From a virus (taxonomy: Duplodnaviria; Heunggongvirae; Uroviricota; Caudoviricetes): a stretch of 64,000 nt of DNA. Below are positions 32,943-64,000 of the stretch, one piece after another. Both the position numbers and the translations under genes were made by a program. The notes beneath the pieces were generated by a model. The model was given only the letters and a program-made list of their open reading frames with translations. It was not told the DNA's origin and did not search any database. The stretch is taken from IMG/VR virus record IMGVR_UViG_2703718777_000015; one strand, given 5' to 3'. The first letter of the stretch is position 1; every line of letters begins with the position of its first letter.

Positions 32943-33306
32943 ACAATCTACGTAACGTGGCGGCGACAGTAGATACAGATATCTCTCCGGTCGCAGCCCC
33001 TACGGTAAGGTCTACCAGTTCAGGGGAGTCAAATACCTGCACCCCGTTACGGCGTAGAAATAACAGCGCACTGTTTAGCGCGGTACGCTTATTGGCATCA
33101 TTGAATATATGCCCTCTCGCTGTAGCCACCAGGTAGGTGGCGGAGACTTCGAAAAGGTCGGTGATCTCTTCGTAGGCAACTCTGGCCTGAACTCTCCCGA
33201 TAATGGCCTCTGCCCTACCCGGATCTGACATTCCCGGCAGGCCGCCGTAGCGGTTTATATTCGCATCATGAAGCGCAATAAGTTCTTCCGGTGATATATG
33301 CCTCAT
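32926..33306 (-). CDS. doc: Doc toxin (Fic-fold kinase) of phd-doc addiction module
   Basis: 126-aa [28 protein letters not shown]... matching P1 Doc. Confidence 0.95.
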
Positions 33307-33527
33307 TATCGGTTAACCAGTTCCTTGTTGGTGGAGTCCAGGGTGTCAAACAGGGATGCAAATTCAGCATCCAGCGCCGCTTTTTTGTAGGCTTCGAAAG
33401 TAGCCTTGCTGACAATTACTGCTGGCTCACGGCCTCTGCGGGTGATTTCAACCTCTTCCCCGGCTTCAACATTGTTGAGCACTTCAGAAAGGTTGCCGCG
33501 CGCGGTACGGAAGTTAATGGATCGCAT
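33306..33527 (-). CDS. phd: Phd antitoxin
   Basis: Track ORF 33306..33533; start at third codon gives the 73-aa Phd sequence; overlaps doc start. Confidence 0.9.
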
Positions 33528-33599
33528 AAACACCTCGTGTACTCGTTATGTGTACACAATTATAAACTTCACAGGCATAAAGCACCAGCACTTTGCAGC

Positions 33600-33989
33600 T
33601 TAAATCACCGGACAATCATCAAATTCCCCACTTCGGGCATCATTGATGACATGAGTGATCACACCAAAAACAGCATTACTGCCCGTGTATCCATCGTCAT
33701 CTACTGGTAACGCCTCTTTCTTCCCGGTGCTTAAATCCTCCAGGTGCTGGCGCGGATACTTCCTGTATCTCTTTATGCGATATTCACCCTCCATAGCGCA
33801 CACAAGCAGAGAACCATCAACCGGAGTAAGCGAGGAATCAACCACCAGCAAAGCACCCTGCAATATTCCCTCACGGTGATGGCTATCAGCTGCCCGCATG
33901 AAGTAGGTTGCTGATGGATGCCTGATTAGTTGCTGATCAAGAGAAATTCGGCTTTCAACATAATCCGCCGCAGGAGAAGGGAAGCCCAT
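33600..33989 (-). CDS. humD: HumD, UmuD'-like S24 peptidase-family protein
   Basis: 129-aa ORF with UmuD-like C-terminal domain; LexA box immediately upstream. Confidence 0.85.
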   Translation of the reverse strand: MGFPSPAADYVESRISLDQQLIRHPSATYFMRAADSHHREGILQGALLVVDSSLTPVDGSLLVCAMEGEYRIKRYRKYPRQHLEDLSTGKKEALPVDDDGYTGSNAVFGVITHVINDARSGEFDDCPVI

Positions 33990-34008
33990 AGCGTTTTCAC
34001 CTCAATAA

Positions 34009-34028
34009 TACTGTTCATTTATACAGTA
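34009..34028. promoter_or_regulatory. LexA (SOS) box TACTGTTCATTTATACAGTA
   Basis: CTGT-N8-ACAG palindrome 20-40 bp upstream of humD start, in divergent intergenic region; approximate. Confidence 0.7.
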
Positions 34029-34163
34029 TACATTAAAGAGACACCTTTGGTGCAAACGCGTTACGTACATCAACAACCGCTGATGATTTTGTGCGCTTTG
34101 CTACTATTCATCACCAACGGATCAGCGTAACCTCGTTGCCAATCAGTTAATAAGGAATTAGCT

Positions 34164-34616
34164 ATGCCTAATGGCATTCCTCTCGATCCTGTATTGCCCA
34201 AAAATTTTGACTGCACTCCTAACGAGAAACGCTCTAAAGCTCAGCTGGACGCCTGGTGGGACCATCCCTATGGGGTTACAGAACATGACGGGAAAATTGT
34301 TGTTTATTGTCTGAATGGTGGCGCGTGGGACCGTCCATCCGTGCTTGGTTTGGCAAATAACTATGATGAAGCCTGTGAACTTGCCGAAAGACAGCAGGCT
34401 AGATGGGTGAAAACACGGTCACAGCCGACATTCATGTTTTCAAAAGAACCGCCATTTATACTGGCGAGGATGCCGCAGCGACCGGATCATCAACAAGAAA
34501 TTGTTGCTGAATTTTCCTCAAGGGATGAGATGAATCTCTTCTCATTAAAGCAGGAAGAAAGGGAGCGCGTCGAAGTGTCTCCAACTCTCGACCACAACCG
34601 GATGAACCTGGCCTAA
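34164..34616 (+). CDS. Hypothetical protein divergent from humD (possibly LexA-regulated)
   Basis: 150-aa ORF sharing the LexA-box intergenic region. Confidence 0.4.
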   Translation: MPNGIPLDPVLPKNFDCTPNEKRSKAQLDAWWDHPYGVTEHDGKIVVYCLNGGAWDRPSVLGLANNYDEACELAERQQARWVKTRSQPTFMFSKEPPFILARMPQRPDHQQEIVAEFSSRDEMNLFSLKQEERERVEVSPTLDHNRMNLA

Positions 34617-34742
34617 CTCGCCTGGTACAGCAAAGAATTAGAGATGTCTATTGCCCGACTTGAAAACGAAAAAGCCGCTATCCAAGCCCAGCATGAAGCT
34701 GTCATTGCCAGGATACGAGAAGTTCAAAACGGTTAACTACCG

Positions 34743-35006
34743 CTATTTCTTTACGGCATCATCTTTCTGATATGCCGGATCGCTCCCTTTTGGCAACTGG
34801 AGGCTTAACTGCCAGTAGTGCCGTAGCCGTTCCATGAAATAGGTGCGCAGATTCTCTGGTTGCTCGCGGGCTACCTGTTCAGCTATGACAGGTATGTTCA
34901 ATCGCTCTTTGTACGCCACACCGCTGGCAGCCAGATCAACGTTAACCTTATCCCGTTCTTCCTGACTTTTAGCTGCAATATTCCAATCGTACATATCAAA
35001 TCCCAT
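34743..35006 (-). CDS. hot: Hot, homolog of DNA polymerase III theta subunit
   Basis: 87-aa ORF with [39 protein letters not shown] closely resembling E. coli HolE. Confidence 0.75.
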
Positions 35007-35656
35007 CCAGAATAATTGAGTAACGACTATTATTTAACCAGCAAAGTAACTTTTAATTTTTTTTCTTCTCCCATTGATTTTTGTGCACAGCTTATCTGCC
35101 TTGCCGTGCGCAGAATCAACTTTTTTCTTCCTGATTTATCCACAAAGTTATGCACTTGCAAGAGGGCCATTTTCTAAATATTGTGATGTTTCACAAATGA
35201 AATGAATTTTGATTAATGAAGATAAGGAGAAAATTTGAGATGCAATCATGACGTTAATAGATAGGGTCTGCATTACAGACCCCACCCGCATCAAGGAATT
35301 AGCCGTTCCCTGATGTTGTTCCGAAAACATGTGCCGTAAGCTCACGTTAACGACTTTCTTTCACCGAATCCAACTATATAAGGGTTGGGTTTCTACGTCA
35401 ACGTGAGCAAGTGCTCCTTTACATTTGACAAGGAACCACCTTAATGACTGCTTTTTTTCAGTTCCTGAGTGCATTTTTAGATGCGCCTGTTATTAGCCAG
35501 ATTCTGGCTATTATCCTCATCATCGTTTTGATTTTGCTTTTAAGGTCAGTAAAAAATGGAATTATGCACTGGCTTACTTAATGTTTCAGTGAAACATTAA
35601 AATCTCCTTGATGTGGAAACAATCATTTTCTGTATGTGCTGGTGGGTACCTGTAGT

Positions 35657-36019
35657 TCAGCTTTCGTTGGCATTTAACTTCGTCTTTGCTTTCTCCACCA
35701 GCAACTTCCAGATGCCTATTTCATTAGCAGCCGCCTTGATGGCGGCATAAAAAGCATCTTGCTGATCGTAACGCTGAATCTGTTTTTTCAGTTTTGCCTC
35801 CACCAATTTAATTTCATTACGTGCTTTCTGAAGCCGCCGCGCCGCCCGGTTACGTCTGTTCTTGTATAGCGCGTTAATCTCTGACAATTGCTTTAATTTA
35901 CCAGCCTGACTGCGGATTATCGCCTCTCTGACTTCTGCCGTGCGTCTCATCTGATCTCTTAAGAGTTCACCGTTTTCGATAATTCTTTCAAGGTGTTTGA
36001 TGTGATCTGCAACTCTCAT
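35657..36019 (-). CDS. Coiled-coil protein
   Basis: 120-aa ORF, Arg/Lys/Glu-rich heptad-like sequence. Confidence 0.4.
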   Translation of the reverse strand: MRVADHIKHLERIIENGELLRDQMRRTAEVREAIIRSQAGKLKQLSEINALYKNRRNRAARRLQKARNEIKLVEAKLKKQIQRYDQQDAFYAAIKAAANEIGIWKLLVEKAKTKLNANES

Positions 36020-36948
36020 ACTTCACCCTCGCTTGTATCGCCAGCATCCACCAACGGCAATAAAGCCATGGCCATCTTATGAACCAACAGAGCATCGATA
36101 ATGCCAAGCGTATGCCCCGGCTTAATGTTTAATGCCGCCTCAAGGTGACACCTTTCTAGGTCACTTTTCTCGGCTTGTTTATGATGATCTGGCGTAATAA
36201 CGTCGCCCAAAACACGGCTAATTCTTTCTCGTAATTGCTGGGTGCCAGCACACTTGACCGCTGTATCGTGGAGGCGGTTAACCAGTTCGCGATAAACATG
36301 CGGCTTAATTCGGATACGTTCACCGGGGACGCCCTTTCCTTTCGCTGGCACCGAACTATCCGGAATGTCCGGATAGTTGCCAGCCTCGTAAGCTACCCGC
36401 AGCCAGTGCATGAATGTTTCAGTGGACACACAACCACAGTCCACATCGATTTTCCCGCGTTGCTGTTCCAGCCATTGCCCAAAATCCAACCTGTAAGTCT
36501 TACTTTCAAGTTCATCACCATTGAACTCGACTTTCTGCGACGCTATGAGAGCTGATTCGTATTGTTCGCGAGTGACAACTGACTGGTATTCATCGCTATC
36601 AAGGTCACCAATTGGAAGCTCAATCTCACAACAAAAATTGCGCCCAAAGAAAGTGTCTTTTTTGTGGTCTGAGCCAAAAGCAAAAGTCGCGCATGGTGCC
36701 ATTAAATTGACACTGGGTAGGTAACAATAACTCATTCCATCAGGCCACCCGCCGCACTTAGGCAGCTCCTTCACTAACAAGTCGATAAGCTTCATTTTTT
36801 TATCATCTTTGCAAGCCGCCAAAGCCATTTGGGCAAGTGCCAATACTTCATCGGCCGTATATCCAGCACCGTGACCATACATTTCGATACGGGAAATAGT
36901 CTCTGATATACGCTCTTCAGTGATTCTGGTCATTTCTTTTTGCGCCAT
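36016..36948 (-). CDS. Hypothetical protein
   Basis: 310-aa ORF overlapping neighbours (operon). Confidence 0.45.
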   Translation of the reverse strand: MAQKEMTRITEERISETISRIEMYGHGAGYTADEVLALAQMALAACKDDKKMKLIDLLVKELPKCGGWPDGMSYCYLPSVNLMAPCATFAFGSDHKKDTFFGRNFCCEIELPIGDLDSDEYQSVVTREQYESALIASQKVEFNGDELESKTYRLDFGQWLEQQRGKIDVDCGCVSTETFMHWLRVAYEAGNYPDIPDSSVPAKGKGVPGERIRIKPHVYRELVNRLHDTAVKCAGTQQLRERISRVLGDVITPDHHKQAEKSDLERCHLEAALNIKPGHTLGIIDALLVHKMAMALLPLVDAGDTSEGEV

Positions 36949-37304
36949 TTCTTTTCACATTCCTTAGTCCATTTTTCAATGTTCATTTTGGCAATATCAG
37001 TCATTCCATCACCTAAGAAATACTTTCTCCGGTATGTCTTGCACTTAAACCACACTACAACAGCCACCAGCCAGAAAATAAAAGGCCATACAGCAATACC
37101 AACGACAGCCGCGATAAAGCCCAATATCCATAAATGAAGCTCTCCAACTTCTGTTTCCGGCAATATTCTTAAAGAATTAAACAGCAGGCTGAACGAATGG
37201 TCGTATGCATTGGCAGTATAAGACATGCAATCCATATAATTAAAGTCATAGCCTGCGGCTGCCGCCCATAATGGGCGGTCAAGAAAATGTTTTAGTGTCA
37301 TCAT
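36930..37304 (-). CDS. Small membrane protein
   Basis: 124-aa ORF with hydrophobic helix and Lys-rich tail. Confidence 0.4.
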   Translation of the reverse strand: MMTLKHFLDRPLWAAAAGYDFNYMDCMSYTANAYDHSFSLLFNSLRILPETEVGELHLWILGFIAAVVGIAVWPFIFWLVAVVVWFKCKTYRRKYFLGDGMTDIAKMNIEKWTKECEKKWRKKK

Positions 37305-37310
37305 ATTAAT

Positions 37311-37700
37311 TTAAGGTTCAGACCAGTTATCTTCAATAGCAATGCTTAATCTTTGTAGCCATTCTGCTAATTTCAGCATTGCTTCTCTTTCGCTTAAACC
37401 ACGAGGAAAATCATCAAGCGATATTGTTGGCTTGAAGCCCCCGTAATTATCCATTTCAACGGTCAGATTTTGCTCCAGTACGGTATTCCTTACGCGGCTA
37501 TTGTGGCGAAGCAAATATACTGAACGTGATTTATTGGTTTTGTGGTCGAGCTGATATTCGGTAAGTATCATCTGGCTTTTGCCATGACTATTACCTCTCC
37601 ACATACTTACCTCACTTAATAAAACAACTCCATGCGTAGTTGATGATTTTTTCCCACGTAATATAAATCTGCACTCCGGCAGTAAAACCAAAGCCAACAA
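37311..37700 (-). CDS. Hypothetical protein
   Basis: 129-aa ORF. Confidence 0.35.
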   Translation of the reverse strand: MLALVLLPECRFILRGKKSSTTHGVVLLSEVSMWRGNSHGKSQMILTEYQLDHKTNKSRSVYLLRHNSRVRNTVLEQNLTVEMDNYGGFKPTISLDDFPRGLSEREAMLKLAEWLQRLSIAIEDNWSEP

Positions 37701-38097
37701 TTGCTGAAAAAATCAAAACATTTACTTTTGACATTATAAATTTTCTCTCGGTGTCGTAGGTGATAGCACCATAATTGATAATTTAGTGAGTTAGCAGTTC
37801 CATTTTTTGGATGATTTCCGCATGAGCATCATCGTTGTCAACACTTAACTCGTTTAATGCCTCTCGCACTACATCAACTTCTTCTGGTTGGAAGAAGTCA
37901 TCTCGGTTGTCACCAAATAGAACCGAAACAAGCCTTCCACCAGCAACATCAAGATTGGCGCTAACAGGTGGCTCTTTACCATCCTCAAATCGACTACAAA
38001 AGTTATTTTTCCCATCGTTACCACCAGCGACAAATTGAATACAAACCCAGTGCTGCCGCCATCACAATTCCTACCGTTGCGAATGCTTCAGGCCAGC

Positions 38098-63938: not shown

Positions 63939-64000
63939 TACGGCTTCCTTCCAACCGGCTTTATTGGCCGGTTTATTCAACTTATCCACAGCATAGATCC

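Follow-up and report, generated by a model that had tools for sequence, protein, structure and literature searches.

What does bacteriophage P1 encode between its hot and pmgV genes? We examined this question for a viral DNA of 64,000 nucleotides (nt) (IMG/VR virus record IMGVR_UViG_2703718777_000015; the whole stretch is referred to as the window), which represents a P1 variant: its segment 34700-36100 is 99.9% identical to AF234172/NC_005856, in reverse orientation. The interval in question, positions 35007-35656, is the gap between hot (34743-35006, minus strand) and pmgV (35657-36019, minus strand). All features that the P1 record AF234172 lists in it, namely LPhot, upfO, upfN, upfM, PupfN, P1upfM, and P2upfM, lie on the minus strand of the window; the three upf open reading frames (ORFs) are labeled 'unknown protein function', and PupfN, P1upfM, and P2upfM are predicted sigma-70 promoters. 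The same record remarks that positions 35119-35174 are similar to an Escherichia coli stretch carrying two predicted DnaA boxes. The older record M95666 places an 'nrdA-like promoter' and a 'dnaA box' on the plus strand of the window, in addition to a mapped late transcription start. The answer that we tentatively favor, and which we rate slightly below an even chance, is that the interval would be a compact module read on both strands, rather than three small protein genes: a sense mRNA for a small membrane peptide, driven by a DnaA-box promoter, would be opposed by a cis-antisense RNA.

Individual motifs do not distinguish this interval. DnaA-box-like 9-mers with at most one mismatch occur at chance level in the window (16, compared to 14.5 expected), and the promoter-like sites returned by our scan are likewise no more than chance would give (3, compared to 2.7 expected); the case therefore rests on the comparison with relatives. 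Across phage, plasmid, and IMG/VR collections, the DNA of the interval matched only P1-like phage-plasmids of Escherichia, Salmonella, and Shigella, which fall into three classes: P1-type (at least 98.6% identical), P7-type (about 92%), and a class at about 77.5% identity that we label c77. No further class emerged from a word-indexed protein search, from HMMER run exhaustively against 1.84 billion representatives, from scanning the DNA of genome and viral contigs with 16-mers (in which the genome matches were chance), or from degenerate back-translated patterns. The integrity of ORFs was counted over 54 independent IMG/VR loci.

The divergence between P1 and c77 is distributed unevenly along the interval. 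It amounts to 26% in 35007-35133, 10% in the block that holds the DnaA boxes and the -35 hexamer, 34% plus 20 gap columns in 35174-35217, 10.9% in 35218-35410, 31% in 35411-35443, 22.5% in the ORF that we designate orf45, and 26% in 35582-35645; homology between the classes stops at about 35645. Positions 35218-35410 thus form a conserved core, the most constrained block of the interval, between flanks that diverge by 26-34%. Since the divergence of the core is far below the synonymous divergence (dS) of hot, which is 0.43 between P1 and c77, and below that of orf45, the strongest constraint in the interval acts on nucleotides and not on codons.

The original prediction, made from the letters of the window alone, had placed a consensus DnaA box near 35136, and this box is indeed there: a perfect consensus TTATCCACA at 35136-35144 on the plus strand, the 'dnaA box' of M95666. 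A second box, TTATGCACT, follows at 35148-35156 (plus strand), with a core, TTATGCAC, that is invariant in all lineages. The two boxes abut, directly upstream, the -35 hexamer TTGCAA (35156-35161) of an nrdA-type sigma-70 promoter (35156-35184, plus strand), which continues with a 17-nt spacer and the -10 hexamer TATTGT (35179-35184) and has a predicted start at about 35191. The boxes and the -35 hexamer lie within a segment (35055-35174, plus strand) that is homologous to the upstream regulatory region of E. coli nrdA, with 82.6% identity and a match in all 5426 of 5426 complete E. coli genomes; the matching E. coli site is located between yfaL/ypaB and nrdA. Sequence comparison identifies the E. 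coli nrdAB promoter as a true homologue: the alignment takes in about 80 bp upstream, box 1, box 2, the -35 TTGCAA, and the spacer GAGGGCCATTTTC, and it ends at the -10 hexamer, whose position is the same throughout (TATCTT in E. coli, TATTGT in P1, and TACTGT in c77, with T1, A2, and T6 kept in all classes). The geometry of the hexamers equals that of E. coli nrdA (TTGCAA-17-TATCTT), from which we predict an E. coli start about 108 nt upstream of the nrdA ATG, that is, at the head of the 5' untranslated region (UTR); this agrees with the known start.

Box 1, box 2, and the -35 hexamer are invariant across seven lineages (P1, P7, c77, E. coli, and the three Cyrano-type elements described below), as selection on a DnaA-controlled promoter would leave them. 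Unlike the P1 interval, the E. coli nrdAB promoter is followed by a 5' UTR with NrdR boxes, whereas the homology of P1 stops at the -10 hexamer and the DNA transcribed from there is unrelated to nrdA; accordingly, the E. coli stretch that carries the paired NrdR boxes, CCCCCTATATATAGTGTT, has no counterpart in P1. The copy of the upstream segment in P7 (window 35038-35130) is 90% identical to E. coli and only 79% identical to that of P1, which argues that phage-plasmid and host have exchanged this DNA, or undergone gene conversion here, more than once. The sequence comparisons give good support to the view that the DnaA-box stretch is a conserved nrdA promoter copy. DnaA control is known for the chromosomal promoter, where DnaA-ATP represses nrdAB (PMC2500167), and by analogy DnaA would control the P1 sense promoter as well. 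The window contains one other perfect copy of TTATCCACA, at 63982-63990.

Downstream of this promoter, the original prediction had proposed a 45-codon ORF for a hydrophobic peptide with a ribosome-binding site (RBS). Exact translation places this ORF, orf45, at 35444-35581 on the plus strand; it encodes a predicted single-pass membrane peptide of 45 amino acids (aa), MTAFFQFLSAFLDAPVISQILAIILIIVLILLLRSVKNGIMHWLT, and its RBS, AAGGA (35431-35435; GAGGA in c77), is located 9 nt before the ATG. With a mean Kyte-Doolittle hydropathy of 3.3 across residues 16-33, the peptide has the properties by which type I toxins are recognized (fewer than 60 aa, hydrophobic, a predicted transmembrane helix). 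No other ORF outside the core is conserved; orf45 keeps its length without interruption in 54/54 loci and in each of the three classes. Between P1 and c77 it has accumulated 31 substitutions in 138 nt and not a single indel, while all three neighboring non-coding spacers carry indels; random substitutions drawn from the same spectrum leave it open in only 13% of the simulated sets. Amino acid replacements are conservative (I/V/L/F, R/K, D/N) as far as residue 36, and the last nine residues are variable. The GGA core of the RBS is kept inside a 33-nt stretch that has diverged by 31%. The Prokaryotic Genome Annotation Pipeline (PGAP) calls the ORF in P1-like plasmids (WP_000123562.1), and it corresponds to gp107 of JL22 and J46_0085 of SJ46, but it is absent from the P1 reference. 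On these grounds orf45 is probably a genuine gene. Its 3' end is a recurrent site of damage in natural isolates (the records include L130, 3001-3470, and NZ_AP026785.1): an IS1 insertion follows codon 36, an IS1A copy lies within the interval of another plasmid, and frameshifts are seen in an A-run at codons 37-38 and in a c77 copy; the first 34-37 residues are always retained.

The mRNA that would start at about 35191 is predicted to have a leader of about 250 nt before orf45. At the start of the conserved core, the sequence of this leader shows a strong Shine-Dalgarno (SD) motif, TAAGGAG (35223-35229), followed by candidate mini-ORFs (block 35223-35264, plus strand). One of these starts with TTG (35235-35264; nine codons, MRCNHDVNR) at the optimal 5-nt spacing from the SD; another starts with the ATG at 35240 (MQS; ATG-CAA-TCA-TGA, 35240-35251), and its TGA overlaps, as ATGA, the ATG of a longer possible leader ORF, orf21 (35248-35313, plus strand; MTLIDRVCITDPTRIKELAVP). 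The block is invariant except for positions 35243 and 35253. In c77, a change of CAA to TAA turns the ORF at 35240 into a start-stop directly behind the strong SD. orf21 lies inside the nucleotide-conserved core and is intact in 54/54 loci; its ratio of non-synonymous to synonymous substitution rates (dN/dS) is about 1.0 (1 synonymous and 6 non-synonymous codon changes), and selection probably does not act on its sequence. Translation of orf21, should it occur, would matter as a process and not for the peptide that it yields. In the full-length mRNA, the SD core of orf45 is predicted to be mostly paired in all classes (probability of being unpaired, 0.18-0.28). We looked for a conserved anti-SD partner and rejected it, the partner being specific to each class.

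The conserved core also holds a promoter of the opposite orientation. PupfN (35373-35401, minus strand) consists of a -35 hexamer TTGACG (35401-35396), a 17-nt spacer, and a -10 hexamer TATAGT (35378-35373), with a predicted start at about 35365; it matches the consensus at 10 of 12 positions, and neither hexamer varies among the 20 distinct variants of the interval. The imperfect inverted repeat of the original prediction, with a smaller hairpin enclosed in it, proved real and coincides with this promoter. Its outer arms are 13 nt long (35340-35352/35396-35408; 12/13 complementary) and the inner hairpin has arms at 35366-35375 and 35383-35392; the inner loop contains the -10 hexamer of PupfN and the right outer arm contains its -35 hexamer. 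As plus-strand RNA, this nested repeat (35340-35408) folds at -20.8 kcal/mol.

Leftward from PupfN, the core would be read into a candidate antisense RNA with three stem-loops (35260-35365, minus strand; SL1 35321-35352, SL2 35289-35315, SL3 35260-35287), whose conserved tail may reach about 35218. Its minimum free energy is -44 kcal/mol (z -4.2; 0/200 shuffles), compared to -30 kcal/mol (z -2.2) for the plus strand of the same segment. The minus-strand stems are the stronger ones in every class (SL3, -20.4 versus -11.8 kcal/mol; SL2, -9.2 versus -6.6; SL1, -10.1 versus -3.4), an asymmetry that is due to G.U pairs. In a sliding 110-nt profile, the global folding minimum of the interval falls on the minus strand at 35245-35354 (-43.2 kcal/mol, z -5.4); such a minimum has served as a criterion for locating type I antitoxin RNAs (PMC2887945). 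From class to class the stems are invariant or compensated: at the pair 35267/35279, T-A is replaced by C-G, and A-U takes the place of G.U in two further pairs. The seven-base loop of SL2 accounts for three of the c77 differences. In a search in trans, the antisense RNA showed no significant complementarity to the orf45 initiation region beyond the overlap, which leaves the shared leader as the route for any control. The presence of a nucleotide-constrained core that folds strand-asymmetrically behind an invariant promoter is well supported by these sequence comparisons.

The conservation of the core can also be viewed as that of a DNA-level element, in which sites for a regulator of the phage or the host reside on the repeat 35340-35352/35396-35408 and the folding is a by-product of palindromic sites. 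The 13-bp arms are near-invariant and bracket PupfN, and operators are typically inverted repeats around promoters. However, the arms are 43 bp apart, too distant for a single dimer site, and the strongest conservation and folding lie to the left of the repeat, in SL2 and SL3. DNA sites would require neither the G.U strand asymmetry nor the one covarying pair, and neither of the two P1 records annotates a C1 operator or any other protein-binding site in the interval. We consider this explanation rather improbable.

How do the three proteins of the reference annotation fare in the same comparison? The ORFs in question are upfO (35030-35170; 46 aa), upfN (35148-35345; 65 aa, GTG start), and upfM (35361-35474; 37 aa), all on the minus strand and annotated in AF234172 and NC_005856; we judge none of them to be a gene. 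They are intact at the same length in 18, 18, and 48 of the 54 loci, respectively, and all three carry stops or frameshifts in c77, where upfM is broken in every copy. In upfN, moreover, a single inserted nt shifts the frame in P7, and an insertion of 19 nt is present in c77. Reading frames that are not maintained in the diverged relatives, substitutions that show no codon-position bias, and the failure of PGAP to call any of the three all speak against protein-coding function. Two protein similarities stand in favor of the annotation. UpfM, alone among them, matches PHROG 31823, a family that was itself derived from P1 annotations. UpfO corresponds to YpaB, an annotated protein of E. coli (L007, 1168-1311); both frames run antisense over an nrdA-type promoter, and their likeness is accounted for by the conserved promoter DNA beneath them. 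Since the UpfO frame decays in c77, the ypaB ORF called on the chromosome may also be no more than a by-product of promoter DNA that is conserved. It is hard to credit that upfM, upfN, and upfO are genes, and we attach next to no probability to the reference annotation as a correct account of the interval. Dropping the three ORFs from the annotation and adding orf45 is well supported by the comparative data.

The original prediction, whose listed features all lie at the positions given or a few bases away, had dismissed every ORF of 60 aa or more in the interval, which needs qualification in this light: a 65-codon ORF with a GTG start, upfN, does exist, but its frameshift in P7 and its stops in c77 leave the judgment on its credibility standing. 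The prediction had also named conventional protein genes annotated across the homologous P1 region as grounds for abandoning it. Formally, such genes are annotated, in the form of upfM, upfN, and upfO, but the comparative data argue that these annotations are wrong. That first reading had overlooked the three annotated minus-strand ORFs, the leftward promoter that the nested hairpins contain, the homology to nrdA, and a perfect palindrome (11+11). The palindrome, TTAATGTTTCA g TGAAACATTAA (35578-35600), overlaps the orf45 stop codon and the predicted hexamers of P1upfM and P2upfM. We dismissed it as a functional element, which it probably is not: many P1-type variants have a 1-nt deletion in it, and it has diverged in c77. 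Of the promoters that AF234172 predicts on the minus strand, P1upfM and P2upfM have not been conserved in c77.

In the model that we tentatively favor, the captured nrdAB promoter would drive a rightward mRNA from the predicted start at about 35191, through a leader with a strong SD and tiny leader ORFs, into orf45. From within this leader, PupfN would make the leftward structured RNA, from 35365 to about 35260 and possibly to 35218, which would be fully complementary to the leader; an overlap of the two RNAs requires that the orf45 mRNA starts upstream of 35365. The antisense RNA would hold orf45 down by pairing with the leader (blocking a leader ORF and/or leading to cleavage of the duplex), by interference between the face-to-face promoters, or by both. 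Occupancy of the boxes by DnaA-ATP would tie the sense promoter to the replication-initiation state of the host, as at nrdAB. The firing of the promoters, the ends of the RNAs, the translation of orf45 and its toxicity or other phenotype, and the regulation by antisense RNA and DnaA are the inferred parts of this model. The original prediction, which the comparison supports in part, had offered a small RNA, a regulatory site, or a small membrane toxin-like peptide as alternatives. The conserved promoter copy, the conserved hydrophobic ORF, and the coincidence of the hairpins with a promoter and a strongly folding RNA favor the presence of all three together; the case for a structured RNA is stronger on the opposite strand from the ORF, an antisense relation that had not been considered.

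A number of observations weigh against this model. With regard to orf45, selection at the protein level is weak: its dN/dS of 0.45 is high compared to 0.12 for hot and similar to that of other frames (at the length of orf45, dN/dS does not discriminate between coding frames), its BLOSUM score is not above that of simulations, natural variants with frameshifted or IS1-truncated tails exist, and the pairing partner of its SD differs between the classes and is not conserved. The peptide matches no toxin family in Pfam, PHROGs, NCBIfam, or PADLOC (Pfam and NCBIfam searched at E values up to 1-10), and no Rfam antitoxin RNA (Rdl, Sok, IstR, OhsC, Sib, Orz, AgrB) was found at E up to 1 on either strand of 33000-38000 or in the c77 locus L003. 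The sense promoter agrees with the consensus at just 8/12 positions, below the threshold of our scan. The covariation of the stems is statistically insignificant among the five distinct sequences (125/500 shuffles) and, since only three classes were found, cannot be made significant; moreover, the c77 change of C35341 to T weakens SL1 on the minus strand and keeps a G.U pair only in the plus-strand RNA, which, by this folding prediction, may also be structured. Published search parameters for type I loci call for spacers of more than 400 nt upstream and more than 250 nt downstream of the toxin gene (PMC2887945); the 437 nt from hot to orf45 exceed the former, but just 75 nt separate orf45 from the next gene, pmgV, compared to the 250-nt spacing typical of known loci (PMC2887945). 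A literature search on the interval gave no report of transcripts. Finally, our scan found no convincing intrinsic terminator after SL3, whose tail reads UAUCUAUUAA, so that the leftward RNA may be short or may read into hot.

This last point bears on another explanation, according to which the leftward RNA is the 5' leader of a sigma-70-dependent hot mRNA that provides hot expression outside the late phase, while orf45 is independent of it and stands in no toxin-antitoxin relation to it. It is in line with the lack of any minus-strand intrinsic terminator between PupfN and hot, with the annotation of Łobocka, which sets PupfN upstream of minus-strand genes, and with the joint travel of hot and the module in the P1 and c77 classes. 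Against it, about 150 nt of such a leader (35007-35133, 35174-35217) are poorly conserved and carry indels, and only the part that overlaps the plus-strand unit is conserved. P7-type elements keep the core although their hot gene has been replaced by IS903 and other DNA, and the explanation does not account for an invariant DnaA-box promoter that is aimed into the RNA from the other side. We regard it as unlikely, though clearly worth keeping in mind; it is also compatible with, and not exclusive of, the antisense model, in which a leftward RNA that does not terminate past SL3 would continue as a long leader into hot.

A second lineage of phage-plasmids offers a locus of similar layout. Elements of the Cyrano type contain an unannotated gap beside a humD homologue (L132, 1940-2460, from phage Cyrano, OV696614; also L133 and L134), and this gap carries, at the same genomic position, the same nrdA-type DnaA-box promoter as P1; the DNA downstream is unrelated in sequence to that of P1. 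A predicted plus-strand RNA of about 90 nt ends there in a strong bidirectional terminator (L132, 2006-2035). Converging on it from the minus strand is a candidate small RNA (sRNA) with a stem-loop and the same bidirectional terminator; its 5' part (AGTCGCCAGATACTTA...) shows complementarity of 19-20 nt with a stretch of the 5' UTR (L132, 2247-2267) of a 27-codon ORF. This ORF (L132, 2338-2421) encodes a conserved hydrophobic peptide of 27 aa, MVNLLFKIVPPMFAIIKAIIEYVNQRP, and has its own terminator; the differences among its three variants are mostly synonymous. An AgrB match in this locus remained below threshold (Rfam; 27.6 bits, E 0.2), occurred in one variant only, and was not reproduced, so that we discarded it. 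As judged from sequence, the Cyrano locus looks like an undescribed type I toxin-antitoxin locus, with the layout of divergent systems such as dinQ/agrB, to which it is closer than the P1 locus is. That two unrelated units of peptide and RNA lie behind the same captured promoter makes it more likely from the outset that the P1 unit has a function and belongs to this kind.

The Cyrano locus also bears on the view that the P1 interval has no function at all. The interval would then be a recombination scar, with host nrdA promoter DNA acquired by a transducing phage-plasmid, chance ORFs and hairpins, and a conservation that reflects recent ancestry. The region is indeed dispensable for lytic growth: surveys by CRISPR interference and deletion found upfN, upfO, hot, and their neighbors to be non-essential for it, with upfM not targeted owing to the lack of a protospacer adjacent motif (PMC10695390). 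It belongs to the pmgT-humD block, one of eight highly variable regions of P1-like elements (PMC9603915), IS1 and IS903 have inserted in several relatives, the nrdA segment has evidently been exchanged with the host, and bare motif counts are at chance. Neutral decay, however, would not produce divergences of 10-11% in the boxes and the core next to 26-34% in the spacers, nor does this view explain why orf45 is open in every locus while three overlapping or neighboring ORFs decay, or why a sequence-unrelated locus has the same layout behind the same promoter in another lineage. We therefore hold a functionless interval to be very improbable.

The surroundings of the interval suit a module of the favored kind. 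The neighbors hot (a homologue of the theta subunit of DNA polymerase III), lxr (LexA-regulated), humD (a UmuD' homologue), and phd-doc form an accessory island for replication, damage, and maintenance, a setting into which a DnaA-gated module fits. Outside the module lies LPhot (35029-35052, minus strand), the late promoter of hot with its -10 and -22 late operator, annotated in AF234172 and M95666 and with a mapped start at 35020-35021. In the c77 elements L003 and L006 (2160-2633), hsdM of a type I restriction-modification system follows orf45 on the same strand in place of pmgV; the c77 element L005 has neighbors unlike those of L003 and L006. Since the neighbors change between the classes beyond about 35645, the module and hot behave as a unit at a recombination junction. 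The lxr gene of the window (34164-34736, plus strand) differs from that of reference P1 by an R4G replacement and by a premature stop at codon 151 (CAG to TAG, 34614-34616), which marks the source of the window as a P1 variant whose Lxr is truncated.

P1 serves as a reference phage and as a standard tool of genetics, and three of its 117 annotated genes, those of this interval, are probably artifacts, whereas the one conserved small gene of the interval is missing from the reference record. If the favored model holds, P1 would have a second addiction-like or stress-response module, controlled by RNA and about 1.5 kb away from phd-doc, that would be wired to DnaA and not to LexA. To our knowledge, a DnaA control input has not been described for type I systems. 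A more far-reaching proposal is that the P1 family has a switch that senses host replication through a DnaA-ATP-gated nrdAB promoter, a convergent antisense RNA, and a membrane peptide, and that the Cyrano-type lineage assembled such a switch independently, with an RNA and a peptide of unrelated sequence placed behind the same captured promoter; this we consider distinctly unlikely as a whole. Were it true, the peptide would be made only when the initiation or replication state of the host changes, and selection would have linked DnaA status to a membrane-active peptide, for instance in maintenance of the prophage-plasmid, the decision on induction, or the exclusion of competitors. The sequences also show a mobile element that has taken up one particular host promoter, that of nrdAB, more than once.

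With respect to known type I systems, the P1 locus, as modeled here, most visibly recalls ldr/rdl, in which a small hydrophobic peptide is made from an mRNA with a long 5' UTR and a leader ORF, and a cis-antisense RNA, made from a strong promoter, covers the UTR and not the RBS or start codon (PMC4147584). The peptides show a marginal, local likeness: LDAPVISQILAIILI of orf45 and LAAPVIAGILASMIV of LdrD are identical at 8/15 positions (pairwise E = 0.001; shuffle p 0.0045 against LdrD and 0.11 against LdrA; the LdrD and LdrA sequences used match Pfam at E 1e-24 to 1e-27). We did not retain orf45 as a member of the Ldr family (PF13940), only as a resemblance: the Pfam Ldr_toxin model does not match it, the hhalign probability is 7%, and P1-like plasmids are not reached by a tblastn search with LdrD. 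Members of the Ldr/Fst superfamily share a signature in which a Trp stands immediately behind the helix and a charged cluster comes next (PMC2887945); it is missing from orf45, whose invariant W43 lies about 10 residues past the helix and is followed only by L-T or L-I. Rdl is about 60 nt long, compared to about 105-150 nt and three stem-loops for the candidate P1 antisense RNA, which has no match to the Rfam Rdl model.

More loosely like the P1 locus of the favored model, hok/sok of plasmid R1 and its homologues combines a membrane peptide of a plasmid or phage-plasmid with an antisense RNA at the leader ORF region and an RBS that is sequestered in the full-length mRNA, as is predicted for P1 (PMC4147584). 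The two share no sequence or Rfam similarity, and while mok overlaps hok, the leader ORFs of P1 end at least 130 nt before orf45; a conserved hok-like 5'-3' fold-back was not found in the P1 locus. In tisB/istR-1 and dinQ/agrB, as proposed here for P1, the promoter reports on the status of DNA or replication and the site of action of the antitoxin RNA is a long way upstream of the start codon, and the position of the P1 locus among SOS and replication genes (lxr, humD, hot) adds to this likeness. Those systems differ from P1 in their LexA-controlled promoters and in their divergent sRNAs with short complementarity, whereas P1 shows a predicted cis-overlap only. The parts of the module are of known kinds, some of them already noted in GenBank, and its novelty is modest. 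Face-to-face promoters with overlapping 5' UTRs are found at pR/pL of coliphage 186 and in the excludons of Listeria. The P1 interval likewise has opposed promoters, about 175 bp apart, with overlapping 5' regions that lead toward orf45 and hot; in contrast to pR/pL and the excludons, however, its overlap is predicted to form a conserved, highly structured RNA and not ordinary leader sequence.

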